Assembly (NCBI GenBank): GCA_001599295.1
Contig: BCGN01000007.1
Coordinates: forward strand, 770,470-834,469
Length of the DNA stretch: 64,000 nucleotides
Direction: 5' to 3'
Origin: Sporopachydermia quercuum
Lineage: Eukaryota
The position numbers were made by a program, and so were the translations under genes. The notes beneath the pieces are model-generated. The model searched no databases. It was not told the origin of the DNA and was given only the letters and a program-made list of their open reading frames with translations. Of the stretch, positions 18,589 through 51,964 are shown piece after piece; positions within the stretch are counted from its first letter, which is position 1, and each line of letters starts with the position of its first letter.

Positions 18589-19893
18589 ATGTCAACTGAT
18601 AAAAACAGTAGCATTTTGATCATTGGTGCAGGCACCTTTGGTTTATCATCTGCTTTGCATTTAGCAAGAGATGGTTATACTAACATTACCTGCTTTGACA
18701 AATATCCAGTGCCTTCTCCAATCTCTGCTGGTAACGACAGCAACAAGATGGTAGATTATGAATACTATTCACCTGGCGAGAAAATTCCTGCAACTGATAG
18801 AATAAGAATGGAGGCCAAGGATCTATGGGGATCTGATCCTGTTTTCAAACCGTACTACCATCCAGTTGGATTCATTTTTGCTGCTTGTTCTGACGAAGTG
18901 TTGAATAGTAGAGAGAGGGCAAGGAATATTGTTTCGGCTAAGGGAACCAAATATGAATATTTGAATACTCAAGAAGGGTTCAAGAAGCATCTACCTGTGT
19001 TAAGCGGACCTTTATCTGGCTGGAAGGGATATTTGATGAATGATGATGATGGATGGTTGCATGCTAGAGACTCTCTGATATCTGCGTATAAAGAGTGTTT
19101 AAAGTTTGGTGTTAAATTTGTTTTCGGAGAAAATGAAGGAGAAATTGAAAAATTAGAAAAGGCCGGCAGCAAAGTTGTTGGAATAGTTTCAAAGTCTGGT
19201 ATTTTATACAAAGGAGACAAAGTAGTAGTATGCGCAGGAGCTAATGCTGTCAAAATCTTGGATTTCAAGCTTCAGCTACAAGCCAAGGCTTTCACTGTCG
19301 CCCATGTTCAATTGACAAAGGAAGAAGCGGAAACATTCAAAGATCAGCCTGTTTTATTCAACGTTGAAAGAGGTTTCTTCTTTGAACCCGATGAGAATAT
19401 TGAATTGAAGATCTGTAACGAGTTTCCTGGTTATACTAATCTTGACGAAAATGGAGATTCCATCCCATTGTTTACCGATGAGATCCCATTAGAGGCAGCG
19501 AATGCTATCAGAGATTTACTGAGAGAGACAGTTCCCGAATACGCCGATAGACCTTTTGTTAAGACAAGAAGCTGCTGGTGCACTGATTCACCTGATCGTG
19601 AGCTCATTTTATGCGAGCATCCTGAATATACAAATTTGGTGCTGGCCTCGGGTGACTCGGGTATGGGTTTCATGTTGATGCCAGTTATTGGAAAGTATGT
19701 CACCAAGCTTGTTAAAGGAGGCGAAGCGGAATTCACCGAAGAAGAAAGAAATGTCTGGAAATGGAGGCCAGAAACTTCCTCTAGCAGAGATAACGTTCAA
19801 AAGAGATTTGGAGGTAAAGGAGTTGTTACTGATATTAGAAGCATCAAAGAATGGGTGTCTGCTTCAAACCCTGAACCCCATTCTATCTTCTAA
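18589..19893 (+). CDS. Fructosyl-amino-acid oxidase (amadoriase, FAOD/FAOX; MSOX family flavoprotein)
   Basis: ATG 18589. GAGTFGLS dinucleotide fold, PVPSPISAGNDSNK, GWLHARD, GFFFEP, KICNEFPG, CWCTDSPD (flavinylation Cys motif), WKWRPET and RFGG. Closely resembles yeast fructosyl-amine oxidases as recalled. Confidence 0.88.
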   Translation: MSTDKNSSILIIGAGTFGLSSALHLARDGYTNITCFDKYPVPSPISAGNDSNKMVDYEYYSPGEKIPATDRIRMEAKDLWGSDPVFKPYYHPVGFIFAACSDEVLNSRERARNIVSAKGTKYEYLNTQEGFKKHLPVLSGPLSGWKGYLMNDDDGWLHARDSLISAYKECLKFGVKFVFGENEGEIEKLEKAGSKVVGIVSKSGILYKGDKVVVCAGANAVKILDFKLQLQAKAFTVAHVQLTKEEAETFKDQPVLFNVERGFFFEPDENIELKICNEFPGYTNLDENGDSIPLFTDEIPLEAANAIRDLLRETVPEYADRPFVKTRSCWCTDSPDRELILCEHPEYTNLVLASGDSGMGFMLMPVIGKYVTKLVKGGEAEFTEEERNVWKWRPETSSSRDNVQKRFGGKGVVTDIRSIKEWVSASNPEPHSIF

Positions 19894-20953: not shown

Positions 20954-23219
20954 TTAATTGCTGCCCCAATCAGCCAACAGACGATCTTGAATATGTCTTG
21001 TTTCCCATCCACAACTCTCTTTTACTCTTTTCAGAAGCCTTATAATCGTGCTCTGCTTCACCTTACTGTCAACCAACTGACCAGCTACTACTGTTAGTAA
21101 AATAATCTAAGTACAAATAATCTTCTATCAACCGTCATATCATTTCCTATTACTCTAAAAATACTTACCAGCATGAAGAAAATGAATGGAAAGAAGAGCA
21201 GGAGATTCCTCTTCACAACATAAGCTTATTCCTATTATTTTATCACATTCACTAGATAGTGATTGTTTCAACTGTTTACAGTATTGTAAAACATTCAATC
21301 CTCTTGGAACTGGCTTTTTCATCATTATCATTATCTTACAGGTATAGAAACATTGCATTGCTACTCCAGCTTCTGCAGGATGATAATAATAATGCACCAG
21401 CCCATGCTCATCTTCACCAGCCCATAAGGGTTCAAACTTTTGACTAACTTTTGACCTCCAAGCTTCAAGGTAATTCAACAACTCATCAGCTCGTGAATTC
21501 ATTTCTTCGTATTCATTATTATGCTCTTGAGAACAGTAATTAGTAACAAGTCCCCATATATATATGATATAGTTAGCGGCATCTCCTACACTCCATGGTG
21601 GCTCATTCATCCAATTAGAAACATCTACTTTCCATAAACTAGGATCAAATGCTAATGTATTACCTAATAACATAGATTTAGCAACTTCTTGTCTAGCAAA
21701 ACTCCAGAAAGCAGTTCTCATTGCTCCTTGTGCTTCATTGCTTATTCCTAACGTTATTGCTTGAGACATGGCACCTTTCAAGTGGCATTGCCATTCGAAA
21801 TCTGCTGGCTCAAGCATTTCGTATGCTGATAATACAACGGTAGCTATAAATGCTCGGTGCGATGATAACAGATCTGTTTTCGCTAAGGAAGTTCTAACTT
21901 GTTTTAATGTATCATTATAATACTTGATAGCAATGTTATAATCAGAATTAGATATCAACGATAACTGTTTTGCAGATATCGCCAAAAGAGATTTCAAGAT
22001 AGTTTGGTCAAAAAAAGCCATTCGAGTCACTTCTTTAGTATAATGTTTATGATCATCAAAGAGATCAAACCAAGGTCCAATACGCTCTTCAAAGTTCTGA
22101 ATTAGAAGGAGTTCATCGTATGATATTGGAATATTTAACCCATTGGACAATGAAAATTTCTGTCGTATAAGAGGTAACTTGATATTGTTATTAGGTCTTT
22201 CCAATAGATTTGATATAGCTAATCTGGACAAAGGTGAAGGATGATCTAGCTCTTGCAAAGCGGGTATTTCGAAAGGTATATCAAGATCAGGATGAGATAT
22301 TGGAATATCGTGGTTCTCATCAGGAGATGTATTCGTCAAGGATACAGCATGATCTGATGACCAATGAGTCTGTATAGATGTGCTTGATGTACTGTTGGTG
22401 GGACTGGGTGTAGATGAACCATTGGTATTAGCATTGTTATTGCTGGTAGTACTATTAGCAGTATTGGATGAGGAAAGCTCAGCTGGGCTAACTAATGGAC
22501 TGTTCAGTTCACTCGGTAATAATGTGCTATCACGATTAAGCTGATTTTCATGCCGTGATAGTCTTGTTAATTCATTTGTTATACCATCAGCGTCAATTAC
22601 CTCAAGCTCTACTATACTTGAAGGTGGTCTAGGAATGACACTGGCGGTAAGAACACCCGTAGTAGTGACAGAAGCAGTAGAAGATTTGGAAATAGGCTTA
22701 TGATCTTCCTTTAGCTTTATATTATGAACTTCATCATTCTTATTAATATTGCTTTCTCCCCTGATGCTCGCATTAGAATCTCTGACTTTATCTTTATCGC
22801 CCTCTTTGGGCTTTTCCTTATCATTATCATTTTCTTTATTCTTATCCCTGTTCTTATTCCTACTATTCTCTTTCTCTTTACCAATGCTATGAGACATGTG
22901 CCTGAAAAAGAAATCACTAGGGCGATATTGACATCTCCTGTTTGATTTAGAGCAATTTCCACATTTTGGCTTCAATTCATCACATTTCACATGACGCTGT
23001 TTACAGGTTATGCTAGCGAAATGTTAATAATGGTCATAGAAGTATATACACATCCTAGGGATCGTAGTCTTCTTACTCAGTCAAAATAGGTACTTACCAT
23101 CCTGTTCTCACACGCGTTGTACTTAATCTCTTCATCACTGGGACTCTAGTGCTTGTAGTATTGATACTACTCAAGGCGGAAATGCTATTAGTAGCGTTTC
23201 CATTATGTATACTAGTCAT
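20954..23219 (-). CDS. Zn(II)2Cys6 transcription factor (3 exons)
   Basis: Exons 23219-23098, 23012-21169 and 21084-20954. Introns are GTAAGT...ATTAAC..TAG (23097-23013) and GTAAGT...TACTAAC..TAG (21168-21085). The spliced protein gives [33 protein letters not shown], a fungal-specific TF domain (WFDLFD, AFWSFARQEV) and C-terminal HAAGQLV...GWET...LADWGSN*. Confidence 0.9.
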
Positions 23220-26850: not shown

Positions 26851-28019
26851 TTATTGGGGTCCCTTAATAACAGTTTTCATACCTCTTCCTTCTTTGACAG
26901 CATCAAAAGCTTCTTGAGCNTTATCAAAGTCAACGATATCGCTAACCAAGCATTTAACATTGATAATACCAGCTTCAACCAAAGAAATTGCCTTTTCAAA
27001 ATCTCCTTTGTTGTATCTAAAACATCCTTTGAAATCAATTTCTCTAATGCAGATACTAGCCACAGGAAGTTCTGCAGTATCTTTACCCATACCAGTTTGA
27101 ATGAAAACACCTCTGGGTCTCAAAGCATTTAAACCAACTTGCATACAATATTGAGCACCTGTAGCTTCAAATGTGTACTCAAAACCTCTTTCTTCCTCTA
27201 AGCCGTATTTCTGGACTAGGAATTCAGCCATTTCGGCAGCAGATTTTCCTTTGATTGATTTCTCAGTTAGAACACCGAAGTTCTTTCTAGCGAATTCAAG
27301 TCTGTCATCATTGATATCAACAACAACAACGGTTTTAGCGGAGCAAGCATTCTTTGCAATAGCAGCAATCAACACACCAACAGTGCCAGCACCAAATACC
27401 AATACTGATGATCCGTGTCTGACACCTGCTTGCTTTTCAGCATGAACAGAAACAGCTAATGGTTCCATCAAAGCACCTTCCAACAAGGACATGTTTTCTG
27501 GTAATTTATATACAAAAGTTTCAGTGCTTTTGAAGTACTTTGTTAAAGTTCCATCGACAGGAGGAGCAGCTGCAAATCTCATCTCAGCACAGTGGTTGTA
27601 TTGACCACTCAAACATTGTGCGCATTTGAAACAAGGAACACCAGGTTCTACGCATACATGATCCCCAATTTTGAATTTTGTTACATCAGAGCCGACATCA
27701 ACAACGATTGCGGATGATTCATGTCCCAGTATTAGAGGCTTTTTCACAATGAAACTCCCAATCGAACCATGCTGGTAGAAATGGACATCGCTACCGCAGA
27801 TACCTGTGTACTTAATTTCTAATAAAACATCTTTTCCGTTAGTGATATTTGGGACAGGGCGATCTTCATAAGACAAATCTTCGATCTTTTGAAGAACAAA
27901 AGAATGGTTCTATCAAATTGCACAATGTTAGTATACAGATATATTGGAATGCAGCTAATCTAGAAAAGGATTTCCTTTGAAACCATTTAAAATCATACCT
28001 GGGAAGCAGTTGGTGACAT
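26851..28019 (-). CDS. Zn-dependent NAD(H) polyol dehydrogenase (sorbitol/xylitol dehydrogenase family, MDR), 2 exons
   Basis: Exon 1 is 28019-27999 (MSPTASQ), the intron 27998-27910 (GTATGA...TACTAAC...TAG), and exon 2 starts at 27909 (NHSFVLQKIEDLSYE). Motifs: GICGSDVH, GHES, structural-Zn CFKCAQC...C, EPLAVSVH, GAGTVG, VVDIND (NAD type), GCFRY. Confidence 0.92.
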
Positions 28020-28274
28020 CGTAAAATATTTTGGTTGAATGGAGTTCAATGGAAAAAATTGGTATACTTGTTGAAAATATTAGAATGAAGAAAATTCGGG
28101 GCGATCAAGAGTCGATTGTCTATCTTTTACTAGTAAATTTCTGTAAAAGAAGACGATGTATGGTTTATATAGATTGTCGACAATCCATATCTGAACGTTG
28201 AATTTCGAAGTATATACGTATGTTTAGTTCAGTATTTATCCAGATTTTATCAACAAAGAAATAAATTTATCTCG

Positions 28275-31270
28275 ATTGTGGGGAAATTGTGTGGAGTACC
28301 AAGTCTTGAAAAGTCATTAACGAATTTTCATATTTTTATTTGTCATTTTCCTCGTATCAATTACCTGGTTTAGACATACTTACGTTGATACTCGACAACG
28401 CTGCCAAAAGCGTGTTTTTCAGAATCATAAATTTCCCCTGTTTTTCTTGATTTGGAGTTGATGTTTAGAATCCGAAAACCGTTTCACTAAAATATATACC
28501 TAAACTTAAAGTTTAGGTTTTATATTATGAAATTAGTACATGAAATTTCCGGATTTTTTTCTCGTAATACATACTTTAATAAGTAACTCCATCCTTTCTC
28601 CAGATTCTCCATCTCTTCTCTACTTCATTACAAGAAAATAAAAGTTTTCTCATCGTACTCACTATCTGAATTCAAGGGTTCCCCATCTCTTTGAACTGAA
28701 ACAATTGGAACACAAAGTTTTNCCCCCACAATTTCTATTGTTCATATCAGTCGTTTCAATTACCTTCTTCGTCGGGTTTTCTTCTTCGTCCAGTTTTACG
28801 TACCCCAGATTCAGATTTAGGAAGATATTTCTGGTTCAACTTCCGAGTCTTAACTCTATCTCCTCGCCTTCAGAATTGTGGGTTGGTGGCTATTTTACTT
28901 CGGAGTTCTGTTATATTTGTGGAAACTTAAATCTCGTGTTTGCCTCAGGACATAAAATAGACTATTGTTGGTAGAAGCGTGACAATCAGTGAAGAAAAGG
29001 AAACGCGAAGATGCTGAATCAACTGTCAATTACTTATTCTGATATTATTCAACTAGTACTCAATATTTACCAACCTCAAGGTTTATCTTGGTGCTCATTT
29101 CTTTTCAATGAAGTGCATTCTATGCGTTTCCTTCAAACACACCATATCCAATATAATTAGAACTTCCCATTCTACTTTAAGTATAATCTATCTAAAGTGT
29201 ATTGAGTTTATTCAAACTATCTATGTGCACTAAAAAAACAAATAAACATCAACCAAAACACATACATTCATTTCTCATTCAATATCTGTATATTCATCCT
29301 TAAAGCTAATTGGCTTCTTCAATCTCCTTTGCAAGAATCTCACGAGTAAGACCATCATATTTAACAAAGGTAGCAATTGCATCTTTAATTCTGAAAGTTG
29401 CAATTTCATTAGCAGCAATAGCTTTCTCAAGCTTGGTATCATCATCCATATAAGTTTGCTTTGGTGGAGCGTCCTTAACATCAACTTTAGCTGGAAGGGC
29501 AGGCCTGTAATCAGCAGGAGCAGGAGTGTTGATGAGTTTTTCTAAACATGGGATAGGGATGGTCATACCGTCAATACCACTGAGACCTTCAGTTACTTTA
29601 ACACTAATCATAGCGGCAGCAATGTTTTCACACTTGATACCATATGCTCTGTAATAGTTATGTAAATCTCTAGTTAAGGCCCAGCCATAGTTATCTTCAA
29701 GATTATCGTACTCCTTCAATAAGGATAAATCAATGTTTGCTGCTAATTCATCAACATAAGTAGAAATAGCATGACAACCAGCTTCAGCAGCGGCAATTCC
29801 TTGAGGAACTGAATGAACCATGGTACCAAGAGTCTTAATTCCCTTAGTCTTGAGGATTTGAGCAGCCTTTAAACCAGGATAAGTAGAAGGAACTTTGATA
29901 ATGACCTTGTCAGTGGGGACATCAAGATTGTTATAAGCCTTAATATAAGCTTCGGCAGCAGCAACAGTCTTTTCAGTATCATACGCAAAACCAGGATAAG
30001 TTTGAGTTAATGAGTGTCCCTTAACAACCTTCAACATATTCNTACCGAGGATAGCTGAGATGTAATTGATAACGGCATCAACAAAACCATCTTTACCATC
30101 TTTCTCGATTGAGTGGCCAAATTGCTTAGCATATTGGATAGCTTGCTTAGCTAAAGTAGGATCTTTGTTTAACATAAACCAAATGTGAAATTGGTTAGAG
30201 GTAGCATTATCAAAGTATCCAGCTGGCTTAATAGCTAAAGCACCCTCAGGCCACATGGTATCAACACTGATAGTGGTGTGTTCGGCAATAGCGTCGAGTA
30301 AGGTGATAGTCATTTTGAAAGAATATTGAATGGCTGCTAGTTCACAAGTAGTGGTACTGGGACGTGTAGTGAGCGGTAAATGAAGTGGTGTTTGTTTTTA
30401 ATTAACTACGTTATGTAATAAAGCCAAGAAATGAAAATATAGAGGAAATATGAATGAAAAACTGGGATCGAAGTGTTTCTTATAGTAGCTATCTATGGTT
30501 TCCAGATTGAACTTCTCTGTGCGGAGAAATCACCAGATTTGGTTACCTTTCCTTAAGATTAGAAGTGAGAAAATCAATAATAAGTACTCTATCTAAAGCT
30601 TGATTGAAAGAATGAAGATAAAATTCTTCAATTAAGCTTCAACAGAATACTTTAAAATATTCAATAAGGGATAGACGGGCTCCTGAAAAATTGATCAGTA
30701 CCAAGTCGTACCATGTTGCCTGAATGGGAATGAAATACGATGTCAAATCTCCAGATTCCCCACAATTCGGAAAGATAGCCAAAGTGGGTACTACGAGTTA
30801 TCCGAGTGATTGCTCTTTAAAGGAATATGAATACGAGTTATGCGAACAACTCTTTTACTGGCAAGTGAAACTGGAACTTAATCTTATCACTATTGCATCC
30901 TTCTGCGGGGAAATTTCTTTTTANTACGTTATGATAATCGTGTTTCTATTATTGCTTTACTTTGTTCTTGTTTAGTAAAAATCCTTTCGCTAATGACTGC
31001 GAAAACAGTCAGAGAAACTTCAAAACTTAACTTTTCTCATGCTATACTTAACCCTGGAATAAGACACAATTACGTACACTAATATCCATTTCTTGGCTTG
31101 ATGTTGAAACAACCACATTTAATTTCATATTCTCCCTAAAAGCAATATTGAATATTCAAAACAACTCAAACAGTTCCAATTAAAATAAAACTGTTCTATA
31201 TTTTTATTTTTCTTCAATAATTTCAGGAATTCATCTCACAGGGTATTCAATAAAAATTTCCCCACATTTA
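28275..31270. promoter_or_regulatory. Cluster of Mig1/CreA-type glucose-repression sites (AT-box + SYGGRG) upstream of dehydrogenase, aldolase and porter
   Basis: attgtgggg 28275-28283, ccccacaatt 28724, ctccagatt ~28598 and ~30749, ccccacaatt 30758, gcgggg 30905, ccccacattt 31260. Confidence 0.55.
29306..30313 (-). CDS. Transaldolase/fructose-6-phosphate-aldolase-fold class I aldolase with FSA-type active site and no phosphate-binding residues
   Basis: 335 aa. VDT (D18), ATSNQ (N40), AYDTEKTV, IIKVPSTYPG (Schiff-base K140), GIKTLGT, QGIAAAEAG and LSGIDGMTI match the transaldolase family. Q104, Y186, E189, A234 and I236 differ from true transaldolases. Confidence 0.88.
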   Translation of the reverse strand: MTITLLDAIAEHTTISVDTMWPEGALAIKPAGYFDNATSNQFHIWFMLNKDPTLAKQAIQYAKQFGHSIEKDGKDGFVDAVINYISAILGXNMLKVVKGHSLTQTYPGFAYDTEKTVAAAEAYIKAYNNLDVPTDKVIIKVPSTYPGLKAAQILKTKGIKTLGTMVHSVPQGIAAAEAGCHAISTYVDELAANIDLSLLKEYDNLEDNYGWALTRDLHNYYRAYGIKCENIAAAMISVKVTEGLSGIDGMTIPIPCLEKLINTPAPADYRPALPAKVDVKDAPPKQTYMDDDTKLEKAIAANEIATFRIKDAIATFVKYDGLTREILAKEIEEAN

Positions 31271-31501
31271 ACTTTTACTTAACCTTAAACCTTAAAATTT
31301 TAAAAACATCATCACAAAACTATAAAAACGAGACTTGATCCACCAAATAAATAATTTACCTCTCCCAACATTCCTTTTCATCTATTGCTTAATCTTTATA
31401 ATCAAGCAAGGAAGAGTGAGAGTAATAACAAAAACAACACATTAATACTCAGTTTAAACTAGAGAATTTAGTGGAGACTGATAACCAACTCTCTACTCAT
31501 T

Positions 31502-33088
31502 ATGGCGGACCGAAAATATATTGGAGGTTCGGGCCAAAAGCTCAATTTCTACTTAACATTTGCAACATGTACTGTGCTTGCATTCTATGGTTATGACCAA
31601 GGTGTCTTTGGTGGTGTTATTATTGGAGATAGCTTTCTCAAACAATTTGGCTACCCTAATGAGGATGTCATTAGTGAGTTGACCTCAGTTTATAATCTTG
31701 GTTGTTTTGCTGGTGCTGTTGCTTGTATGTTCGTTGGAGACTGGTTAGGAAGACCACGTACTCTTATTACTGGTACCTCCTGGATTCTGGTTGGTGCTAT
31801 TATTCAATCAGCTTCTTATTCACAAGCACAAATGTACGTTGGCAGAGTTGTTGCTGGTGTTGGTACTGGTATGAATACTTCAACAGCTGGTATTTTCCAG
31901 AGCGAAACCGCAAAATTCAGCTCTCGTGGTCAGTTGGTTATTCTTCAAATGGCTATGTGTATTGCTGGTTTCAGTCTTTCCAATTGGTTGACTTTCGGAT
32001 TTTCTTACGTCAGCGGTCCAGCTTCCTGGAGGTTCCCATTAGCATTTCAAGTCGTCTTCTGTTTCATGATTTACGCTATTTGCCCATTTTTACCTGATTC
32101 TCCAAGATTATTGGTTCGTAAGGGTAAGACAGACGAGGCTTTGAATGTACTTTCAAAACTTGCTGGAAAAGATGTTCCAAAGGAGGATGAAGAAGTTCAA
32201 AATACTTATAAGAATATCATTGCTGTTCATGAATTAGAAGAAGAAAACAAGGTGTCTTGGATGGACTTGCTACGTGGTAGAGGACCAGTTGGTTCAATGA
32301 GAAGAGTGGTTCTTGGTATGGGAATGCAAGCTATGAATCAGTTAAGTGGTATCAATATTACATCATACTATTTTGCTTGGGTCTTAATTAATGCTGTTAA
32401 CACGTCAGAAGAACTATCAAGAATTCTATCCTGTGCTGGATCAGTTGTTTATTTATGTTCTTCTTTATGTTCTTACTGGACTATTGAAAGATTTGGTAGA
32501 CGTAGAATGATGATGATCTCTTCTGCTGGTATATGCTCTTGTTTCATTGGTATTACTGTCTGTTTATCCTTGATTGGTAAGAATGGGGGAAGCAATGACC
32601 ATGGCCTTGGTGTTGGTGCTACATTCTTTTTCTTCTTATTCTTTGCATTATTTGGTATTGGTTGTCTTGGTGTCCCATGGTTATATCCCTCCGAAATTAA
32701 CAGTTTGGAGTTAAGAACAAAAGGTGCTGCTTTGGCTACAGCTACCAACTGGATTACTAATTACATGGTTGTAAGAGTCACGCCTCCAGGTATTGCTAAC
32801 CTTGGATGGAAATTTTGGATTGTGTGGATTTCTATCAGTGCTTCCTTCATCGTTTTCACTTACTGTTTCTATCCTGAAACTGCTGGTAGAACTCTTGAAG
32901 ATATCGATACCTTGTTCAACAGAGATTTACCTGTTTTCGTTTTCAGGGAAAAACTCGCCGTCCAATTAAAGAGACCTCAAGAGTTCATTGATCAAGAGAA
33001 TGAAAATAATCACTACACCGAAACTGACGAAAAAGACGTGTCAGTTGTCCATGAGGAGGAAACATCTACAAATTCAAAAAGCGTTTAA
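31502..33088 (+). CDS. Sugar-porter MFS, Stl1-like (polyol/sugar:H+ symporter clade)
   Basis: GYDQGVFGG, DWLGRPR, GRVVAGVG.G, WRFPLAFQ, PDSPR, QAMNQLSGIN, ERFGRR, PWLYPSEI..L..R.KG, ATNWITN and YPETAGRTLE. Confidence 0.9.
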   Translation: MADRKYIGGSGQKLNFYLTFATCTVLAFYGYDQGVFGGVIIGDSFLKQFGYPNEDVISELTSVYNLGCFAGAVACMFVGDWLGRPRTLITGTSWILVGAIIQSASYSQAQMYVGRVVAGVGTGMNTSTAGIFQSETAKFSSRGQLVILQMAMCIAGFSLSNWLTFGFSYVSGPASWRFPLAFQVVFCFMIYAICPFLPDSPRLLVRKGKTDEALNVLSKLAGKDVPKEDEEVQNTYKNIIAVHELEEENKVSWMDLLRGRGPVGSMRRVVLGMGMQAMNQLSGINITSYYFAWVLINAVNTSEELSRILSCAGSVVYLCSSLCSYWTIERFGRRRMMMISSAGICSCFIGITVCLSLIGKNGGSNDHGLGVGATFFFFLFFALFGIGCLGVPWLYPSEINSLELRTKGAALATATNWITNYMVVRVTPPGIANLGWKFWIVWISISASFIVFTYCFYPETAGRTLEDIDTLFNRDLPVFVFREKLAVQLKRPQEFIDQENENNHYTETDEKDVSVVHEEETSTNSKSV

Positions 33089-34597
33089 ATGAGAAATGAA
33101 TTGTTTTATTTTAGTTACGTCAAAGTATAGTTAAAATTGTTTTAATAAATTATTAAGTAATATGTATGAAAGGAGTTGACTTAGTAAGAGTNGGAAAGCA
33201 AATCTAGCGAAACTATCTTCGGTTAGCGGTATACCACGGCTGAGAATAACAGCAAGAGAAAACACCAATGATATTGTGGCATGACTATAAAATACGATCG
33301 ACAAACGGGCTTAATTAGCTAGAAGTTTTATTGAAGAACTGATTTGATTTCGAACAACTGTAGAAGAAAACATTCTGACTCATTTTGTTCCATATCTCCA
33401 AATAACGCATAACTGTTGAGAGTGAGACGTAGGCCTCANTNGACCACGTGACATAGAGGGAACTTTTCTCCACTTGGCCTCTTGATTTATTTGTTCCCGT
33501 ACAAGAACGCTGTTCTAGAGAAGAAGTGGCTCTTCGAAGGTCAGCCGCCAGAATGATTTCTTTTCCTGACTCAAGCGAATAGCTTGTTATTCGCTGCAAT
33601 AATTAATAATAATTATTATTATTCAACTATTCGTATTTCTCGCCAAATAACTATTTATTCTCCAAGAGTATCTTTCTTTCTATCACCTACTTCAATTTGA
33701 TCCCGACGATAATGCATGTCAGGTTCATGAGTAATTTTCTTGATGTATCAAAATAGACTTGTATAGTGACTGATGTTGAATAGTATGCTAATAAAGCACA
33801 CTACTTACTCATCATGGCATTAATGCTGTCACACATTGTCATTATCCATTATCCTCATAAGGTATAAAGTTAATCTATTTTAACAAGGTTTCAACCTTAA
33901 CTTTGTTTTTCTTTTATCCCTACCGAAAGATGCAAAACTCCTGCGTCTTAGAAAAGACTGCCCGTAGGTATGAATTAGACTCTTCGTTCAGCACGAAAGG
34001 TTCCAAGAAAATGAGATCCAATATTGCTCACCATTTGAAGTTTGAAGGTCGAAACTTCCGCAATTTAATTTGAAGGACTCTAGGTTAGCTCATGATCAAA
34101 TCTTCGCCAAATTTTCCCGGTGAAAAATTTGCCTAAAAGCCTGTGATTATCATTAATAAGAAACCATATATGCTACTGACAAAAACCTAAACATGAATAT
34201 GCTCAATAATTCCTCCGGATAGTAAGTGAAAATTCGTCCAGTGCAAAGATCGAAAATTAATGGGTAGTATAATGAANTTTTTCAGACTATAGTAAAAATA
34301 ATTGTGAATTATAATAAATGTGAATTATATTAGGGGTGAATCCGTGTTATAACTAATAAGAAGATTCATTACTTGCACTAAGTGTTCGAATAAACCAATC
34401 AGTTTTTTTCTCTTCCATAGCAAAAATGAAATAAAATAAAAATGAAAGAAGATCAACATTCTCCTTGACCAGAAATTTTATNTAAATATAAATTGTATCA
34501 AATCAAACAAAAAACTAGAGTAATGTGTCCTGCACATTATTAACTGAATAAACGTAGTAAAATAAATCTATATCAATTATCTAGAGGTGAATCAGGT

Positions 34598-36307
34598 CTA
34601 ATTCTTGTTTTTTTCTTCAACAAGCTCCTCAGCATCTTCGGCCCCTTCACTATCACTTTTGGTTGGTGCAATCTTTTCAACATCTCTCACGAAAACCTTT
34701 CGTTTGGTATTGTTACAGAAAAGTGTAACCCAGATATTTGGGTCTTCGTTCTTTTCTTCAAAAATCTGTTCAATATCTTCTAAACTGAAACCGATAGTTT
34801 CAGGGTAAACAAAGTAAACCCACACCAAGATGAATAAGAGAACAAAGACGTAGACCAAGTAATATTTCCAGCCAATCTTATCAATGGCAATAGAATTAAC
34901 AAAATTATTAAAAATGGCAAAGATAGAGTAACCGTTCAATGAAAAAGCAACACCTTTTGCTCTAAGATCAAATGAGAAAATTTCAACAGGATAAGAAGTT
35001 GACATTGGAGTGTAAGCAACATCATAGAAACCAAAGAAAACATATAGGAACGGGATAACAGCAGTAGCAGCTCCATTATTACCATGGATTTGGAATTGAG
35101 CAGTTAAGGCAGTGACTAAAACGAATGAAACAAGCATACCAAAAGTTGAAATGAGGAACAAAGGTCGTCTACCGAATCTGGAAATCGCCCAAGAACCAGC
35201 AAGAGCAAAGAAAATGTTCCATAATTGTAAACAGCCATTGATCAATGTTTGATCAGTGATATCAGTGATACCAATACTATTAAGCATATCAACCAAATAA
35301 TAAGAGATAATTGAATTACCGCAAATGGCTGTGAAGATACCTAGTGAATAGGCAATAACAGATCTATGAATATTAGCTTTGCTTTTGAATAAATCTTTCC
35401 ATGATGATGCATTCGTTTGTTCCATAGAAATACTTTCCTGTAATTCTTTCATTTCAACATCAATGAGGGCGTCATATCTTGGGTCACCACCACCATGGTG
35501 TTTCAGTAAGACGGCACGAGCTTTATCAATTTCACCTCTACCTACTAACCAACGAGGACTTTCAGGAACGAAAAAGAAAATTATCACAAGACCAATTCCT
35601 GGGAAAACGACTTGTAATAANGTTAATAGTCTCCAACTCCAGTTGCCAGTCATATTTCTAATTCCATATGTGATCCAGGCACCGAAGAATGATCCAATAT
35701 AGTAAAAACCTAAGAAAATGGAAGATAAGAAACTTCGGTGAGAAGGATAAGCATTTTCCGTGATTGCAACAACTGCCTCATTACCAGCAACAATACATAA
35801 ACCTTGTAGGATTCTGAAAGCAGTAAACATTCCAACATTTTGAGAAAAAGTTTGAATAATACCGAATACAATAAGTAAGGTACAGAATAAAATAGCAGTC
35901 CATCTTCTACCCAAATGATCACAACATGGTGGTCCAACGAACAAAGCAAGGAAACTACCAAATGCAGAAGCACCAATAATAAAACCTTTATATCCACCAG
36001 TTGGATTTCCAATGAAATCCATGAATGCTGTAAATGCTTGACAGTTGTTCAACAATGAATCAACATATCCATAAGCAGCGGCCAACATGCAAAGTCCTAA
36101 AATTCCAAAATTCAATTTGGCGAGATGAGGTAGCTTATACCATGGCTTAGTATCTAATGGAATAACTGCTGCAATAGCACTTCCAAGAGTCTTTTCGTAT
36201 TCCTTGTATTTTTGAAACTGTTTCTCGGTCAAATTTCCAGGAAATTCTCTTGAAGTTGAAGCACTTGTAGCTACTTCATAGACTTCAGCATTTACTTCCT
36301 CCTTCAT
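34598..36307 (-). CDS. Sugar-porter MFS, Lac12/cellodextrin-transporter-like (beta-glycoside permease)
   Basis: KPWYKLPHL.KLN, DHLGRR, E.AYP.HR, WSWR, PESPRWLV, GNSIISYYL, FGRRPLF, YTPM...YPVEI...LRAKG, IGWKYY and YPET.G.SLE. Divergent from a GH3 gene. Confidence 0.85.
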   Translation of the reverse strand: MKEEVNAEVYEVATSASTSREFPGNLTEKQFQKYKEYEKTLGSAIAAVIPLDTKPWYKLPHLAKLNFGILGLCMLAAAYGYVDSLLNNCQAFTAFMDFIGNPTGGYKGFIIGASAFGSFLALFVGPPCCDHLGRRWTAILFCTLLIVFGIIQTFSQNVGMFTAFRILQGLCIVAGNEAVVAITENAYPSHRSFLSSIFLGFYYIGSFFGAWITYGIRNMTGNWSWRLLXLLQVVFPGIGLVIIFFFVPESPRWLVGRGEIDKARAVLLKHHGGGDPRYDALIDVEMKELQESISMEQTNASSWKDLFKSKANIHRSVIAYSLGIFTAICGNSIISYYLVDMLNSIGITDITDQTLINGCLQLWNIFFALAGSWAISRFGRRPLFLISTFGMLVSFVLVTALTAQFQIHGNNGAATAVIPFLYVFFGFYDVAYTPMSTSYPVEIFSFDLRAKGVAFSLNGYSIFAIFNNFVNSIAIDKIGWKYYLVYVFVLLFILVWVYFVYPETIGFSLEDIEQIFEEKNEDPNIWVTLFCNNTKRKVFVRDVEKIAPTKSDSEGAEDAEELVEEKNKN

Positions 36308-38613: not shown

Positions 38614-41112
38614 ATGGTCGAATTAACTCCAGAAGAAATTGTCAAGCAGTTGACACTTCAAGAGAAAATCCAATTGTCAGCTGGTAAAGATTGGTGGCAT
38701 ACCTACCCAGTCCCAAGACTTGGTGTTCCATCTATTAGATTATCTGATGGTCCTAATGGTGTCAGAGGCACTCAATTCTTTGATTCTGTGAGATCTGCTT
38801 GTTTTCCCTGTTCAACAAGTTTAGGCGCTTCTTTTGATAAAGAGTTCTCCTTTAAAGCCGGTGAATTGATGGCTAAAGAAGCCAAAGCAAAGGGTGTTCA
38901 CGTCATTCTTGGCCCTACTCTTAATATCGTCAGAAACCCTCTAGGGGGTAGAGGTTTTGAATGTTTCTCAGAAGACCCAACTCTTACCGGCATCCTTGGT
39001 GGAGAAATAATCAGAGGTATGCAAAAGCATGGAATTGCTGCCTGTGTAAAGCATTATATATGCAATGAAATTGAAAATCATAGATTATCATCAAACTCAA
39101 TTTTGACTGAAAGGGCTTTAAGAGAGGTTTATATTCGTGCTTTTGAAGTAGCTATCAAAATCGGTGATCCTAAAACTCTTATGACTTCCTACAACAAAAT
39201 GAATGGTATTCATTGCTCTCAAGATAAAAGATTAATCAATATAGCAAGAAAAGAATTAGGTTTTAATGGTGCCATTATGTCTGACTGGGGTGGAACTTTT
39301 TCTGTTGAACAAGCCTATGATGCTGGTCTTGACATAGAAATGCCAGGATCTCCCAGATTCAGAAAAGTTGATGTTGTAGAGCATTTATATTCATCTCATG
39401 AAACTAATGAAGAGTTGATTGAGGAAGCTGCTTTGAACGTTTTGAAGCTTGTTGAATATGCAAAGAAGAATTCTGGAGTACCTGAAGATGCCCCAGAGAC
39501 AACAGATAACAACACTCCTGAAACATCAGCTAAGTTACGAGAACTAACAGCCAGTGGAATTGTTTTACTAAAGAATGAGAATAATTTATTACCTTTCAGC
39601 AAGAAAGACAAATTGGCTATCATTGGACCAAATTCTAATTACATTACAACTTCGGGTGGTGGTTCTGCTGCGTTGAGACCTTATTATAATGTTACACCCA
39701 TTCAAGCTTTTACTGAGGTACTAGAGAACGCTCCTTTATCTCATAAAGGTTGTTATAATCATAAGAAAATCCCAGAAACTCTTTTAATCAATCCGGAAAC
39801 CGGCAAGCCTGGAGCTTCAATGAAAATCTTCTTAGAATCTCATTCTTCTGCTTCCAGAACGTTGGTTGACCAAAGAGTTCTTGACTCAACTCATTTTAGT
39901 ATGTATGATTACTATCATGAAAAGATATCTGATTTTAAGTTCTATGCTGATATTGAAGGCTATTTTGTACCAGAATCTACCGGTACATATGAATTTGGTA
40001 TTGGCAATTTTGGTGCTGCTAATTTGTTCATTAACAATGAAATGATTATTAAAAATGATGATAATGAAAATCCTTTCAGTGCCTTATTGACAGAAGATTA
40101 CCCCGAGAGACATGCTCAAGTAGATCTCGTGAAAGGTGAAAAATACTTGGTGAAAGTTGAATTTGCATCTGCTCAAACATTAGAGATACCACCTTCTAAA
40201 GAAGCTGGTGGTGGTGCTGTTAATTTTGGTTGTTTCCAAGTGGTTGATCCAATTGATATGATCAATGAAGCTTGTGATGTCGCCAAGAGTGCTGAGAAAG
40301 TTGTTCTTGTTATAGGATTGAATAAAGATTGGGAATCTGAGGGTTATGATAGAAAGGATATGAAATTACCTGGCTATACTGACAAACTTGTTGAAGAAGT
40401 ATTGAAAGCCAATAGCAATACCGTTATTGTTAACCAATCCGGTACTCCTGTTGAAATGCCATGGATTAAAGAAGCTCCTGCTGTTCTACAAACTTGGTTT
40501 GGGGGATTAGAAGGTAATAGAGCTATTACTGATGTCATATTTGGTGAAGTCAATCCTTCTGGTAAATTACCTGTGACATTTCCTCTTAAAACTGAAGATA
40601 ACGCCAGTTATCTTACGTTCCATACTGATGGAGGTAATGTTATTTATGGTGAAGATATTTTCGTTGGATATAAATATTTCGATGGTCATAAGAAAGAAGT
40701 GTTATTCCCGTTTGGCTATGGTTTGTCTTACAGTAGTTTTGCTGTTTCTAACTTGAAGATTGCTGATAAAGGAGAAACTGTCCATCTTACTGTTGACGTT
40801 GAAAACACTAGTGATGTTGATGGTGCTGAAGTTGTTCAAGTTTATATTTCTGCACCTGAAGTTGAAGATGTTCCTAGACCTGTTAAACAACTGGTTGATT
40901 TTAACAAGGTTGCTGTTAAGAGCAAGGAAAAAAAGGTAGTTACATTTGCTATTGATAAACAAGACTCTACAAAATATTGGGATGGTTGGACCAATTCCTG
41001 GTGTAGTCTTGAAGGGGAATACAAGCTATTGGTTGGAACTTCAAGTCAGGATCTTGAACTAGAAGCTGTTTTCAAACTGGACGAAACTTTGCGTTTTTAT
41101 AGCCCCAAGTAA
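38614..41112 (+). CDS. Intracellular GH3 beta-glucosidase with PA14-type insert and C-terminal FnIII-like domain
   Basis: SDGPNGVRG, RNPLGGRGFECFSEDP, CVKHY, MTSYNK, MSDWGG (nucleophile Asp), IVLLKN, WESEGYDR (acid/base Glu), PSGKLPVTFP, YGEDIFVGYKY and FPFGYGLSY. No signal peptide. Confidence 0.95.
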   Translation: MVELTPEEIVKQLTLQEKIQLSAGKDWWHTYPVPRLGVPSIRLSDGPNGVRGTQFFDSVRSACFPCSTSLGASFDKEFSFKAGELMAKEAKAKGVHVILGPTLNIVRNPLGGRGFECFSEDPTLTGILGGEIIRGMQKHGIAACVKHYICNEIENHRLSSNSILTERALREVYIRAFEVAIKIGDPKTLMTSYNKMNGIHCSQDKRLINIARKELGFNGAIMSDWGGTFSVEQAYDAGLDIEMPGSPRFRKVDVVEHLYSSHETNEELIEEAALNVLKLVEYAKKNSGVPEDAPETTDNNTPETSAKLRELTASGIVLLKNENNLLPFSKKDKLAIIGPNSNYITTSGGGSAALRPYYNVTPIQAFTEVLENAPLSHKGCYNHKKIPETLLINPETGKPGASMKIFLESHSSASRTLVDQRVLDSTHFSMYDYYHEKISDFKFYADIEGYFVPESTGTYEFGIGNFGAANLFINNEMIIKNDDNENPFSALLTEDYPERHAQVDLVKGEKYLVKVEFASAQTLEIPPSKEAGGGAVNFGCFQVVDPIDMINEACDVAKSAEKVVLVIGLNKDWESEGYDRKDMKLPGYTDKLVEEVLKANSNTVIVNQSGTPVEMPWIKEAPAVLQTWFGGLEGNRAITDVIFGEVNPSGKLPVTFPLKTEDNASYLTFHTDGGNVIYGEDIFVGYKYFDGHKKEVLFPFGYGLSYSSFAVSNLKIADKGETVHLTVDVENTSDVDGAEVVQVYISAPEVEDVPRPVKQLVDFNKVAVKSKEKKVVTFAIDKQDSTKYWDGWTNSWCSLEGEYKLLVGTSSQDLELEAVFKLDETLRFYSPK

Positions 41113-48900: not shown

Positions 48901-49164
48901 TCAATTGACTCTGCGCGTTGCTTTCTTGTTTTTGCTGGTTGGATTGAAACCTCCTGTAGCATTTTGTTAGTGATTAGATCATAAGAAGTACATATGAGAT
49001 ATGAACAAATTGATGATACATACATTGTTAATCGAGGCATTCAAAGCAATGCTTTGTAGAATTGACTGACCTCTAGAACGACGTTTATGGTGATGAGTAT
49101 AAACAGCAGGCGTTGTAGGTGTTGCTGGTGAGCCATTGGTGGCATATGAGTAATCATCAAACAT
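45918..49164 (-). CDS. COG3: Conserved oligomeric Golgi complex subunit 3 (Sec34), 5 exons
   Basis: Exons 49164-49024, 48953-47400, 47294-46956, 46534-46301 and 46190-45918, all phase 0 with GTAAGT/GTATGT donors and CTAAC/TTAAC branch points. Motifs: LDECLDFL..HPNYK...Y..RFRQCMTRAL, LRNRIIRE, QDVQGRLVFR, WYPP, N|SSVFDDLAH, LFLIKH, PRVVNDMIDAKA|EL. Confidence 0.93.
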
Positions 49165-51866: not shown

Positions 51867-51964
51867 GTCCCGGTGGCCGAGTGGTTAAGGCGACGCCCTG
51901 CTAATATTGGATGTGGTTTAGGCGTTGGGTTTTACCTGCGCAGGTTCGAATCCTGTCCGTGACG
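51867..51964 (+). tRNA. tRNA-Ser(GCU) with 16-nt intron (51904-51919)
   Basis: GTCCCGGTGGCCGAGTGGTTAAGGCG (A box), anticodon stem ACGCC/GGCGT with GCT at 51900-51902, long variable arm, GGTTCGAATCC (B box), acceptor ...GTGACG, followed by a T-rich Pol III terminator. Confidence 0.96.

Follow-up and report, generated by a model that had tools for sequence, protein, structure and literature searches.

According to the accessible part of one study (PMC3962226), phosphate is held in transaldolase TalB by two Arg and one Ser, the F178Y variant is a dihydroxyacetone (DHA)-dependent aldolase with 3S,4R stereoselectivity, R181E improves the affinity for unphosphorylated D-glyceraldehyde, and Ser at TalB position 176 favours DHA as the donor. 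Such variants are found in the PDB, where by title 3kof is TalB F178Y/R181E and 4rz6 is TalB E96Q/F178Y. DHA aldolases are wanted as biocatalysts, by which rare sugars could be made from dihydroxyacetone and cheap aldehydes. For the fructose-6-phosphate aldolase (FSA) of E. coli we know of no accepted physiological role. Our literature search found no paper on a fungal long-form FSA-like aldolase and none on a yeast route leading from a polyol through a ketose to aldol cleavage.

Here we analyze a 64-kb stretch of Sporopachydermia quercuum DNA (the window), in which the original prediction had placed a kinase-free polyol cluster consisting of a porter, a phosphate-blind aldolase and a polyol dehydrogenase. 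The reading that we prefer, with a probability of roughly 0.45, is that these genes form a conserved catabolic cluster of three, repressed by glucose, whose substrate is a neutral polyol or the corresponding 2-ketose.

Results

Gene organization

The features of the locus are listed in Table 1. Three adjacent genes had been proposed, with the porter and the aldolase diverging from a common promoter of about 1.19 kb (1188 bp as measured) and an NAD-type SDH/XDH gene 3′ of the aldolase; the sequence, its open reading frames and the Pfam matches agree with this arrangement. The open frame of the dehydrogenase has no ATG at its start. The spliced product is 359 aa long, and its N-terminus matches those of the orthologues in length and position. 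The dehydrogenase ATG follows the aldolase stop on the same strand after 1286 bp. Single N letters at 26920 and 30042 give X in the dehydrogenase translation and at residue 91 of the aldolase, respectively.

Table 1. Features of the porter, aldolase and dehydrogenase locus (positions in the window)
Feature	Positions	Strand	Description	Basis
Porter gene	31502..33088	+	528-aa MFS sugar/polyol porter (Sugar_tr)	Pfam Sugar_tr E 1.3e-92
Divergent promoter, aldolase/porter	30314..31501	.	1188 bp; TGTGGGGAA at 30756..30764 and 31258..31266; CCCCGC at 30905	
Aldolase gene	29306..30313	-	335-aa TAL/FSA-fold protein; predicted phosphate-independent dihydroxyacetone aldolase	Pfam TAL_FSA
Dehydrogenase upstream / aldolase downstream region	28020..29305	.	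TGTGGGGAA at 28277..28285; CCCCDC at 28278 and 28724	
Dehydrogenase exon 1	27999..28019	-	21 nt, ATG and 6 codons, MSPTASQ	Read from sequence
Dehydrogenase intron	27910..27998	-	89 nt, GTATGA ... TACTAAC ... TAG; frame kept	Read from sequence
Dehydrogenase exon 2	26851..27909	-	352 codons and stop; NAD-type sorbitol/xylitol-dehydrogenase family	Open frame, Pfam ADH_N and ADH_zinc_N

The window had also been said to hold no sugar kinase, and none of its 50 distinct ORFs (17 that begin with ATG and have 150 aa or more, and 33 others read from stop to stop with 75 aa or more, a scan that exons of fewer than 75 codons escape) matches a Pfam kinase family; the absence of a kinase across 64 kb says little. 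There is no Zn2Cys6 motif in the six frames of the window, and therefore no obvious cluster regulator was found. Exact look-up of seven window proteins returned no identical entry in the sequence collection. Among sequencing runs, three DNA runs and no RNA run were listed for this sequence. A 32-nt imperfect repeat 3′ of both the aldolase and the porter stops was dropped, since its occurrence was estimated to be at chance level for AT-rich DNA.

The two cluster promoters make up 3.9% of the window and contain 5 of its 15 CCCCDC (Mig1/CreA-type) sites. They also contain three of the four window copies of TGTGGGGAA, for which a count of 0.34 is expected in the whole window. By these counts both promoters are enriched in putative glucose-repression-type motifs.

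The aldolase

The aldolase scores 119.9 bits (E 1.8e-34) with Pfam TAL_FSA (PF00923), whose cut-off is 27, and its piece of the window matched TAL_FSA clusters in a protein atlas. It has the classical long transaldolase fold: the AlphaFold model (pLDDT 97.6, pTM 0.94) superimposes on TalB, Francisella TalA, human TAL and Nqm1 with TM scores of 0.81-0.87. Ten longer relatives carry the TAL_FSA domain alone, without any fusion.

Residues were mapped by HMMER alignments to NQM1 and TalB and by a MAFFT alignment of 130 relatives. TalB residues D17, N35, E96, K132, N154, T156, S176, F178, R181, S226 and R228 correspond, in this order, to D18, N40, Q104, K140, L162, T164, S184, Y186, E189, A234 and I236 of the aldolase. 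Lys140 is thus aligned with the Schiff-base Lys of TalB, and the active-site Asp, Asn and Thr are also kept; D18, N40, K140 and T164 do not vary among 50 relatives with the Gln/Tyr (Q+Y) pair. The E96, F178 and N154 of canonical transaldolase (EC 2.2.1.2) are absent, their places being taken by Q104, Y186 and L162. Q104 and Y186 make up an FSA-type pair, which we take to be equivalent to the corresponding residues in FSA's own numbering. The phosphate site is absent as well, with E189, A234 and I236 replacing R181, S226 and R228. The phosphate-blind aldolase of the original prediction therefore holds at the level of residues, where a lost phosphate site and FSA-type catalytic residues point to such an activity.

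Among the 130 full-length relatives, 71 carry Q+Y and 43 the Glu/Phe (E+F) pair of transaldolases. In the latter R181 is kept in 43/43, R228 in 42/43 and Asn154 in 41/43, and overall E96, N154, F178 and the three phosphate ligands are each kept in 39-43 of the 43. In the Q+Y proteins R181 and R228 are each kept in 3/71, and position 154 is Leu in 68/71. A single clade of 76 sequences (tree support 0.99) holds 68 of the 71 Q+Y proteins. Judged from these alignments, the Q+Y signature lacking a phosphate site is a family trait. Scanning metagenomes with an alignment of the close aldolase clade gave 35 loci, all 24-31% identical, mostly on short contigs and uninformative about the cluster; the same scan of prokaryote genomes gave 13 pattern matches and no relatives among them. 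The window aldolase ends in EEAN and a relative from O. philodendri also has no SKL end. The peroxisomal Tal2 of methylotrophic yeasts, which has SKL and true transaldolase function, was rejected as the identity of the family.

It is a real possibility, short of even odds, that fungi possess a large clade, so far uncharacterised, of TAL-fold proteins of the long form that are natural phosphate-independent DHA aldolases. One of them would be the core of a Lipomycetaceae-type cluster that cleaves a polyol-derived or rare ketose directly, without passing through the pentose phosphate pathway or needing a sugar kinase.

The dehydrogenase and the porter

The dehydrogenase matches Pfam ADH_N (E 1.7e-27) and ADH_zinc_N (E 4.6e-19). 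Its best PDB match is xylitol dehydrogenase 7y9p (E 5.5e-84), followed by 1e3j (2.1e-78) and human SDH 1pl6 (7.7e-74); the match to L-arabinitol 4-dehydrogenase 3m6i is weaker (E 2.8e-58). The protein contains GICGSD, LGHES, GAGTVG, VVVVDIND and a four-Cys CxxCxxCx7C motif, to which we assign, presumably correctly, the zinc-binding and Rossmann-fold roles usual in the family. The Asp of VVVVDIND we take to be the mark of NAD-type members of the MDR family. These matches, together with GAGTVG and VVVVDIND, agree with the NAD-type assignment made earlier, and the SDH/XDH-type identity appears genuine.

Cluster dehydrogenases form a separate clade of 8 among 124 sequences (support 0.88, or 0.97 with a copy from a Logan contig), apart from the remaining XDH-type sequences, among them a paralogue from Lipomyces tetrasporus. 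In the accessible part of a study of L. starkeyi (PMC6593508), two other xdh genes respond to xylose, and xdh 66535, which is of the cluster type, changes little and according to the authors has no CCCCDC motif.

Among the 120 listed homologues of the porter, 17 (53-57% identity) are named 'sugar transporter STL1' by the automatic annotation of their sources. STL1-related fungal porters carry polyols, as stated in the available portions of two papers (PMC3913770, PMC13323096).

Conservation in Lipomycetaceae

The best homologues of the three genes have consecutive accessions, in the same order, in five species of Lipomycetaceae. Listed as porter/aldolase/dehydrogenase, these are Dipodascopsis uninucleata (KAK9458417/18/19), Limtongia smithiae (KAK9450516/15/14), Lipomyces starkeyi (KAK9327294/95/96 and ODQ69368/69/70), L. 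doorenjongii (consecutive in three assemblies) and L. kononenkoae (KAK9235392/93/94). Since these homologues are neighbours in five other species, the adjacency of the trio appears to exceed chance. In L. starkeyi the coordinates show porter and aldolase to be divergent, with a 481-bp spacer, and the dehydrogenase to be co-oriented with the aldolase. The arrangement has survived divergence to 57-73% protein identity, with order and orientation unchanged. Each of the three genes has its best matches in one and the same set of species, with a clear gap in identity to the next among the matches listed. Synteny was scored on homologues of the trio alone. The original prediction had named a lack of conserved synteny as grounds against it, and the synteny is conserved in the five species.

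All the syntenic genomes belong to one family, and the window aldolase nests within that clade. D. uninucleata has a second locus in which a porter and an aldolase are neighbours (KAK9455016/17); no cluster-type dehydrogenase from its contig is found among the 120 matches listed. D. tothii and L. tetrasporus have proteins among the matches listed, none of them a cluster-type aldolase or dehydrogenase. The distant Q+Y aldolases of Ogataea, Saccharomycopsis, Brettanomyces and Debaryomyces (35-40% identity) give no sign of co-location with a dehydrogenase or porter among the best 120 matches of each. Locus tags and accessions of the L. starkeyi genes occur in none of the main texts searched, and the three protein IDs are absent from five supplementary files of the paper on a Lipomyces genome-scale model.

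Expression of the L. starkeyi orthologues

For L. starkeyi, a published time course limited to glucose and xylose was used to compare mean RPKM at glucose of at least 7 g/L with that after exhaustion. Transcripts of all three orthologues are present. Upon glucose exhaustion the porter rises from 4.2 to 66 RPKM, the dehydrogenase from 12.4 to 27.8 and the aldolase from 159 to 215. The aldolase is found at 39-135 RPKM on glucose and peaks at 505-545 RPKM before glucose is exhausted. Porter and dehydrogenase are correlated (r 0.81); the values for aldolase with porter and with dehydrogenase are 0.23 and 0.32. With porter and dehydrogenase, two genes from outside the trio reach correlations (r 0.68-0.85) comparable to that between the pair; these data therefore show general glucose derepression and not a specific regulon.

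Discussion

The trio is kept together in related yeasts and may therefore serve to break down a sugar alcohol without prior phosphorylation. The porter would import a polyol or ketose. The NAD-dependent SDH/XDH-type dehydrogenase would, by the chemistry of its family, oxidize the polyol at C2 to a 3S,4R ketose, candidates for which are D-xylulose, D-fructose, L-sorbose, sedoheptulose and deoxy analogues. Lys140 of the aldolase would form a Schiff base with this ketose, which, as the residues and the engineered TalB variants suggest, would be split into dihydroxyacetone and a short unphosphorylated aldehyde. Because Gln104 and Tyr186 stand in place of the Glu and Phe of transaldolase, the dihydroxyacetone would probably be released rather than transferred. 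Phosphorylation would be deferred to the triose level and left to enzymes encoded elsewhere. The substrate, the direction of flux and the physiological role of the cluster are what we infer from this combination of genes.

Dihydroxyacetone needs a kinase to enter glycolysis, so the term 'kinase-free' of the original prediction stands for the ketose step and fails for the route as a whole, which depends on a kinase elsewhere. For xylulose and fructose, yeasts are already equipped with kinases, and with such common substrates the route would therefore be redundant. The predicted passage from polyol through ketose to DHA and aldehyde is consistent with the aldolase residues, the synteny, the SDH/XDH identity, the stereochemistry and the promoter motifs; the weak co-expression of the aldolase in L. 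starkeyi (r 0.23 and 0.32) goes against it. As to the stereochemistry, the usual ketose products of SDH/XDH enzymes are 3S,4R, the configuration reported for FSA and TalB F178Y in the accessible text of PMC3962226.

The three genes could be explained in other ways. The second Dipodascopsis locus consists of an adjacent porter and aldolase, and therefore the imported compound may be a ketose and not a polyol, porter and aldolase being the core and the dehydrogenase merely feeding the matching polyol into the pool or balancing redox. A common divergent promoter of porter and aldolase, both in the window and in L. starkeyi, agrees with this, as does the lack of a cluster-type dehydrogenase from the second D. 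uninucleata contig among the 120 matches listed; the STL1-type porter GlpC of A. niger, in the part of the report available, also carries hexoses including fructose (PMC13323096). We nevertheless consider such a porter-aldolase core unlikely, since the dehydrogenase adjoins the pair in five of five cluster-bearing species and the L. starkeyi porter follows the dehydrogenase and not the aldolase. Low odds are likewise given to an aldolase that is no catabolic lyase at all, and either works in synthesis (DHA and aldehyde to ketose to polyol, for aldehyde detoxification or as a compatible solute) or transfers DHA between unphosphorylated sugars. FSA-type enzymes and TalB F178Y are in fact used as synthetic DHA aldolases (PMC3962226, accessible part), glycerol, a DHA precursor, is imported by STL1-type porters (PMC3913770, PMC13323096, available portions), and the L. 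starkeyi aldolase, with its level on glucose and its early peak, does not behave like a tightly repressed catabolic gene. However, the NAD-type signature of the dehydrogenase would favour oxidation in vivo, the Gln/Tyr pair is the signature of an aldolase and not of a transferase, and the glucose-repression-type motifs and the rise of the porter at glucose exhaustion fit catabolism.

Adjacency might also have been inherited within one yeast family by three genes with unrelated roles in alternative-carbon metabolism. The confinement of synteny to Lipomycetaceae, with the window aldolase inside that clade, would be expected in this case, and so would the weak co-expression of the aldolase, the equal correlation of outside neighbours with porter and dehydrogenase, and the absence of co-location signs for the distant Q+Y aldolases (best 120 each). 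It is made improbable by an order and orientation that survive at 57-73% identity, by a porter-aldolase pair that is still adjacent after duplication in D. uninucleata, and by motifs common to both cluster promoters. Among the matches listed, the single best-match species set with its identity gap, and the listing of D. tothii and L. tetrasporus without cluster-type aldolase or dehydrogenase, argue in the same direction. It is very improbable that the cluster consists of standard genes of the pentose pathway, namely an ordinary transaldolase and the XYL2 xylitol dehydrogenase of xylose catabolism. Pfam does assign the TAL_FSA and zinc-ADH families, a xylitol dehydrogenase is the best PDB match to the dehydrogenase, and L. 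starkeyi expression rises in the xylose phase, but the aldolase is without E96, N154, F178 and all three phosphate ligands. In addition, two further xdh genes of L. starkeyi respond to xylose, 66535 being singled out as not dynamic (PMC6593508, accessible part), and the true peroxisomal transaldolase of O. polymorpha, Tal2, ends in SKL (PMC6052537, accessible part) whereas the window protein ends in EEAN.

If the catabolic reading is true, a natural dihydroxyacetone aldolase would have a physiological role, and yeasts would have an additional way of breaking down polyols or ketoses without sugar phosphorylation. Eukaryotic carbohydrate catabolism would gain a new route, and the TalB F178Y/R181E biocatalyst a natural counterpart; evolution would have arrived at the three substitutions that engineers made for unphosphorylated substrates. 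Lipomyces are oleaginous yeasts under development for biomass conversion, and their metabolic models would be affected if dihydroxyacetone, glycolaldehyde or glyceraldehyde were made or consumed by a reaction not yet recognised.

Comparison with known systems

The fungal oxidoreductive route of polyol and pentose breakdown, in which xylitol or sorbitol dehydrogenase is followed by xylulokinase or hexokinase, shares with the cluster the family of the first enzyme and the expected ketoses. In the cluster, however, the next gene is an aldolase without a phosphate site and not a kinase, and the dehydrogenase belongs to a separate clade which in L. starkeyi is not the xylose-responsive xdh (PMC6593508, accessible part). 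The Tal2 of O. polymorpha carries SKL and is able to complement tal1, as far as the available text of PMC6052537 goes, whereas the window aldolase is without SKL. Among solved structures the best sequence match is Nqm1 (PDB 3cq0, E 4.4e-26, TM 0.87), a protein of similar length class; compared with Tal1 and Nqm1 the window aldolase has both the catalytic Glu/Phe and the phosphate site replaced.

FSA shares with the window aldolase the Pfam family and the Gln/Tyr signature, from which a lyase is predicted for the window protein. The FSA chain is shorter (220 aa against 335 aa), and the window aldolase is nearer to Nqm1 (E 4e-26) and TalB (E 1e-23) than to FSA (E 2e-9). The natural substrate of FSA is phosphorylated, and FSA has Ala at the donor-selecting position where the window aldolase has Ser. 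The bacterial sulfo-transaldolase BmSF-TAL is, we assume, a TAL-family enzyme with a non-phosphate sugar donor and a dedicated catabolic gene set. It is a weak PDB match (8bc3, E 4.3e-4) and a transferase of the short form whose substrate is an anionic sulfonate, whereas the window aldolase is of the long form, has an acidic residue where the anion-binding Arg would be, and carries a lyase signature. A precedent is the non-phosphorylative L-rhamnose (LRA) cluster of yeasts, a clustered route whose final step is the aldol cleavage of an intermediate that carries no phosphate. Unlike the cluster described here it has sugar acid intermediates, a pyruvate aldolase of another fold and no polyol at its start.

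The engineered TalB variants 3kof and 4rz6 have a fold like that of the window aldolase over its whole length (TM 0.84-0.85), and the substitutions E96Q, F178Y and R181E made in them correspond to the natural Q104, Y186 and E189. The window aldolase differs in being a natural protein, 21-24% identical to them, and in carrying the further replacements of N154 by Leu, S226 by Ala and R228 by Ile.

Organization of the cluster and its surroundings

Open reading frames and Pfam matches placed the sugar porter, the predicted aldolase (a protein of the TAL/FSA fold) and the NAD-type sorbitol/xylitol dehydrogenase at the positions originally predicted for all three genes. Porter and aldolase are divergent, with a spacer of 1188 bp; the dehydrogenase is on the aldolase strand, its ATG 1286 bp past the aldolase stop. 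The open frame of the dehydrogenase lacks a start ATG, which is supplied by a 21-nt first exon (28019..27999); an 89-nt intron, marked by GTATGA, TACTAAC and TAG, separates the two. The spliced product is 359 aa long and its N-terminus aligns with those of its orthologues. Its single CTG codon stands where the LGHE motif has its conserved Leu, an indication that the standard genetic code is used. The window has a G+C content of 35% and contains 58 isolated single N positions (e.g. 26920, 28722, 30042, 30924); two are inside cluster coding regions, giving one X in the dehydrogenase and one in the aldolase. None of the 50 distinct window ORFs scanned matched a kinase family, in line with the earlier statement that the window holds no sugar kinase.

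Features of the window and the orthologous cluster of Lipomyces starkeyi (scaffold_16; coordinates from the RPKM table in the PMC6593508 supplement)
Feature	Position	Strand	Remarks
ABC transporter, full-size	1933..6411		upstream neighbour
Flavohaemoglobin	7639..8868		globin + FAD + NAD domains; upstream neighbour
MFS_1 transporter	15125..16768		upstream neighbour
DAO-family FAD oxidoreductase	18589..19893		upstream neighbour
580-aa ORF	21155..22897	-	low-complexity N-terminus, no Pfam match
Dehydrogenase, open frame	26851..27909	-	Pfam ADH_N + ADH_zinc_N
32-nt element past aldolase stop	29251..29282
Aldolase	29306..30313	-	335 aa; TAL_FSA 119.9 bits, cut-off 27
Porter	31502..33088	+	528 aa; Pfam Sugar_tr E 1.3e-92
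32-nt element past porter stop	33085..33116
Second Sugar_tr porter	34598..36307	-	569 aa
GH3 beta-glucosidase	38614..41112	+	832 aa; PA14 insert
446-aa ORF	41723..43063	-	weak Fungal_trans_2 match, E 0.0018
COG3 gene	46920..49040	-	broken by in-frame stop at 47358..47360
tRNA	51867..51964	+	Rfam, 45.5 bits, 98 nt
L. starkeyi porter	scaffold_16 451531-453560	-
L. starkeyi aldolase	scaffold_16 454042-455096	+
L. starkeyi dehydrogenase	scaffold_16 457023-458149	+

The second porter and the GH3 beta-glucosidase form a divergent pair directly adjoining the cluster. They probably serve uptake and hydrolysis of beta-glucosides or cellobiose, and the region therefore looks like a small carbohydrate-utilisation island. 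The 580-aa and 446-aa ORFs, on either side of the sugar genes, may encode regulators; the Zn2Cys6 motif is absent from every frame of the window. For the four upstream neighbours no connection with the cluster is apparent. Just past the aldolase and porter stops there is an imperfect 32-nt element (78% match, 14-nt identical core), which was dismissed as a meaningful feature, being by our own estimate at about chance level in AT-rich DNA. In the COG3 gene, COG3_N and the larger part of COG3_C lie in the ORF 47358..49040, and the contiguous frame 46920..47357 has the remainder of COG3_C (E 1.1e-20); a broken gene, a sequence error or a short intron could explain the interruption. The tRNA probably contains an intron, since the Rfam match spans 98 nt; ARAGORN in bacterial mode detected no tRNA in the window.

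Catalytic residues and missing phosphate site of the predicted aldolase

Among solved structures, the aldolase matches long transaldolases best (Nqm1, E 4.4e-26; TalB, about 1e-23), whereas the match to the 220-aa FSA is far weaker (E 2e-9). An AlphaFold model obtained with 50 relatives as input was very confident (pLDDT 97.6) and superposed full-length on TalB, Nqm1 and human transaldolase (TM 0.81-0.87). HMMER alignments and a MAFFT alignment of 130 full-length relatives gave concordant residue maps, in which TalB positions correspond to the window aldolase (in brackets) as follows: D17 (D18), N35 (N40), E96 (Q104), K132 (K140), N154 (L162), T156 (T164), S176 (S184), F178 (Y186), R181 (E189), S226 (A234) and R228 (I236). 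Thus, the aldolase retains the lysine of the Schiff base together with the Asp, Asn and Thr that bind the sugar, has the Gln/Tyr of FSA-type lyases in place of the transferase-specific Glu/Phe, and has lost all three phosphate ligands.

According to a review of aldolase engineering (PMC3962226), the phosphate ligands of TalB are two Arg and one Ser, F178Y by itself turns TalB into a DHA-dependent aldolase, and R181E has the best affinity for unphosphorylated D-glyceraldehyde. The same source describes 3S,4R products from FSA and TalB F178Y, and a preference for DHA rather than hydroxyacetone as donor when position 176 is Ser. By their PDB titles, 3kof is TalB F178Y/R181E and 4rz6 is TalB E96Q/F178Y. 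The window aldolase naturally combines the same changes that were engineered into TalB, which supports, as a prediction from sequence, the proposal that it is phosphate-blind.

An exhaustive profile search detected 1049 relatives at E up to 1e-3, 14 of them at 1e-30 or better. At TalB positions 96 and 178 the 130 aligned full-length proteins have the lyase pair Q+Y in 71 cases, the transaldolase pair E+F in 43 and a mixed pair in 16. The E+F proteins keep R181 (43/43) and R228 (42/43); in the Q+Y proteins each of these is kept in 3/71, position 181 is Glu in 45/71 or Asp in 5/71, and position 154 is Leu in 68/71. A single clade of 76 (support 0.99) includes 68 of the 71 Q+Y proteins, and its named members are fungal without exception. 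Judged by these residues, the lyase signature without a phosphate site is a family trait and not peculiar to the window aldolase. No paper describing this clade was found in the literature searched. The peroxisomal Tal2 of Ogataea polymorpha, described as having an SKL end and complementing tal1 (PMC6052537), was rejected as the identity of the Q+Y aldolases, which have no SKL-type end.

Conservation of the cluster in Lipomycetaceae

The same Lipomycetaceae species supply the best homologues of each of the three genes, and these stand well apart from the next matches listed: 62-73% identity against 40% or less for the aldolase (the 62% match being a Logan-contig copy), 57-61% against 54% or less for the dehydrogenase, and 67-73% against 61% or less for the porter. 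Synteny, proposed in the original prediction as a check, was found in five species, in each of which the best porter, aldolase and dehydrogenase homologues have consecutive NCBI accessions: Dipodascopsis uninucleata (KAK9458417/18/19), Limtongia smithiae (KAK9450516/15/14), L. starkeyi (KAK9327294/95/96 and ODQ69368/69/70), L. doorenjongii (in three assemblies) and L. kononenkoae (KAK9235392/93/94). These genomes all belong to one family, which limits what the adjacency can show. In L. starkeyi the layout is that of the window, with porter and aldolase divergent and the dehydrogenase co-oriented with the aldolase. One aldolase and one dehydrogenase homologue also share a Logan contig size of 6908 bp.

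The window aldolase is nested within the Lipomycetaceae clade of the tree. The cluster dehydrogenases form their own clade (8 of 124 XDH-type sequences; support 0.88, or 0.97 with the Logan copy added), from which a Lipomyces tetrasporus paralogue is distant. Among the matches listed, D. tothii and L. tetrasporus have other proteins and no cluster-type aldolase or dehydrogenase, a hint, not proof, that the two genes are jointly present or absent across species. At a second D. uninucleata locus a porter adjoins an aldolase (KAK9455016/17), and no cluster-type dehydrogenase from that contig is among 120 matches listed.

Expression and promoter motifs

Expression was taken from an L. starkeyi time course of 15 samples in two media (RPKM; PMC6593508 supplement), MMPCS being taken as corn-stover hydrolysate medium and MMGX as glucose-xylose medium. 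Porter (88504) values were 2-7 before glucose exhaustion and 205 and 94 (MMPCS) or 19-27 (MMGX) after it; those of the dehydrogenase were 9-20 before and 19-37 after. The aldolase (protein 7020) started at 39-135, peaked at 505-545 as glucose fell and stood at 89-364 after exhaustion. On log values porter and dehydrogenase correlated with r 0.81, and the aldolase with r 0.23 (porter) and 0.32 (dehydrogenase); two genes outside the trio reached r 0.68-0.85 with porter and dehydrogenase. Hence transcripts of all three orthologues are present, with clear glucose repression of the porter, and no trio-specific regulon was seen in this glucose/xylose time course. The flanking scaffold_16 genes 7017, 108030 and 7023 were also derepressed at glucose exhaustion, and 7023, downstream of the dehydrogenase, reached about 2000 RPKM. 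In PMC6593508 the cluster dehydrogenase (66535) is listed as the third of three xdh genes; it lacks the CCCCDC motif and "does not change much", the dynamic xylose genes being xdh 3740 and xdh 72797.

The 9-mer TGTGGGGAA occurs four times in the window (0.34 expected), with three copies (at 28277, 30756 and 31258) lying 236-451 bp upstream of the three start codons of the trio. As it was picked by searching for words common to both cluster promoters (the divergent spacer and the region upstream of the dehydrogenase), its statistics are post hoc. These promoters share eight 11-mers against 2.4 expected. The published motif 5'-CCCCDC-3', described as enriched in L. starkeyi genes rising on glucose depletion and compared to Mig1/CreA sites (PMC6593508), provides an independent test: the whole window has 15 sites against 18.5 expected, without overall excess, and the two cluster promoters account for 3.9% of the window and for five of these sites.

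Proposed pathway and comparison with known systems

Enzyme families, residues, synteny and transcription were observed directly, and from here we infer substrate and direction of flux: uptake of a polyol or ketose, C2 oxidation and aldol splitting of the ketose, in our view the likeliest reading, though a tentative one with a probability of about 0.45. Import of a neutral polyol, or of the corresponding ketose, would fall to the porter; fungal porters related to STL1 are described as carrying glycerol, sorbitol, mannitol, xylitol, ribitol, arabitol and galactitol, and one of them hexoses too (PMC3913770, PMC13323096). The dehydrogenase would oxidise the polyol at C2; among solved structures it most resembles xylitol dehydrogenase, ketose reductase and sorbitol dehydrogenases, with L-arabinitol 4-dehydrogenase a weaker match. 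The usual products of this family, D-xylulose, D-fructose and L-sorbose, are all 3S,4R, the configuration formed and cleaved by FSA-type enzymes. Cleavage of the ketose by the aldolase would then yield dihydroxyacetone and glycolaldehyde or a glyceraldehyde. Dihydroxyacetone enters glycolysis via a kinase, so the route is not kinase-free overall; that description, used in the original prediction, would hold for the ketose step alone.

A ketose as the actual substrate, with porter and aldolase forming the core, is unlikely. We regard as similarly doubtful that the aldolase runs in the synthetic or transfer direction, and give no greater weight to an inherited adjacency of three genes that share no common pathway. 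That they are ordinary pentose-pathway genes is highly improbable, being contradicted both by the aldolase residues and by the other xdh genes of L. starkeyi.

FSA and engineered TalB already perform the chemistry of the proposed polyol pathway, whose dehydrogenase and porter are of ordinary families. What appears to be undescribed in the literature searched is a natural eukaryotic clade of long-form transaldolase fold with the lyase signature and without the phosphate site, the conserved clustering of this aldolase with genes for a porter and a polyol dehydrogenase, and the pathway that the three genes imply.
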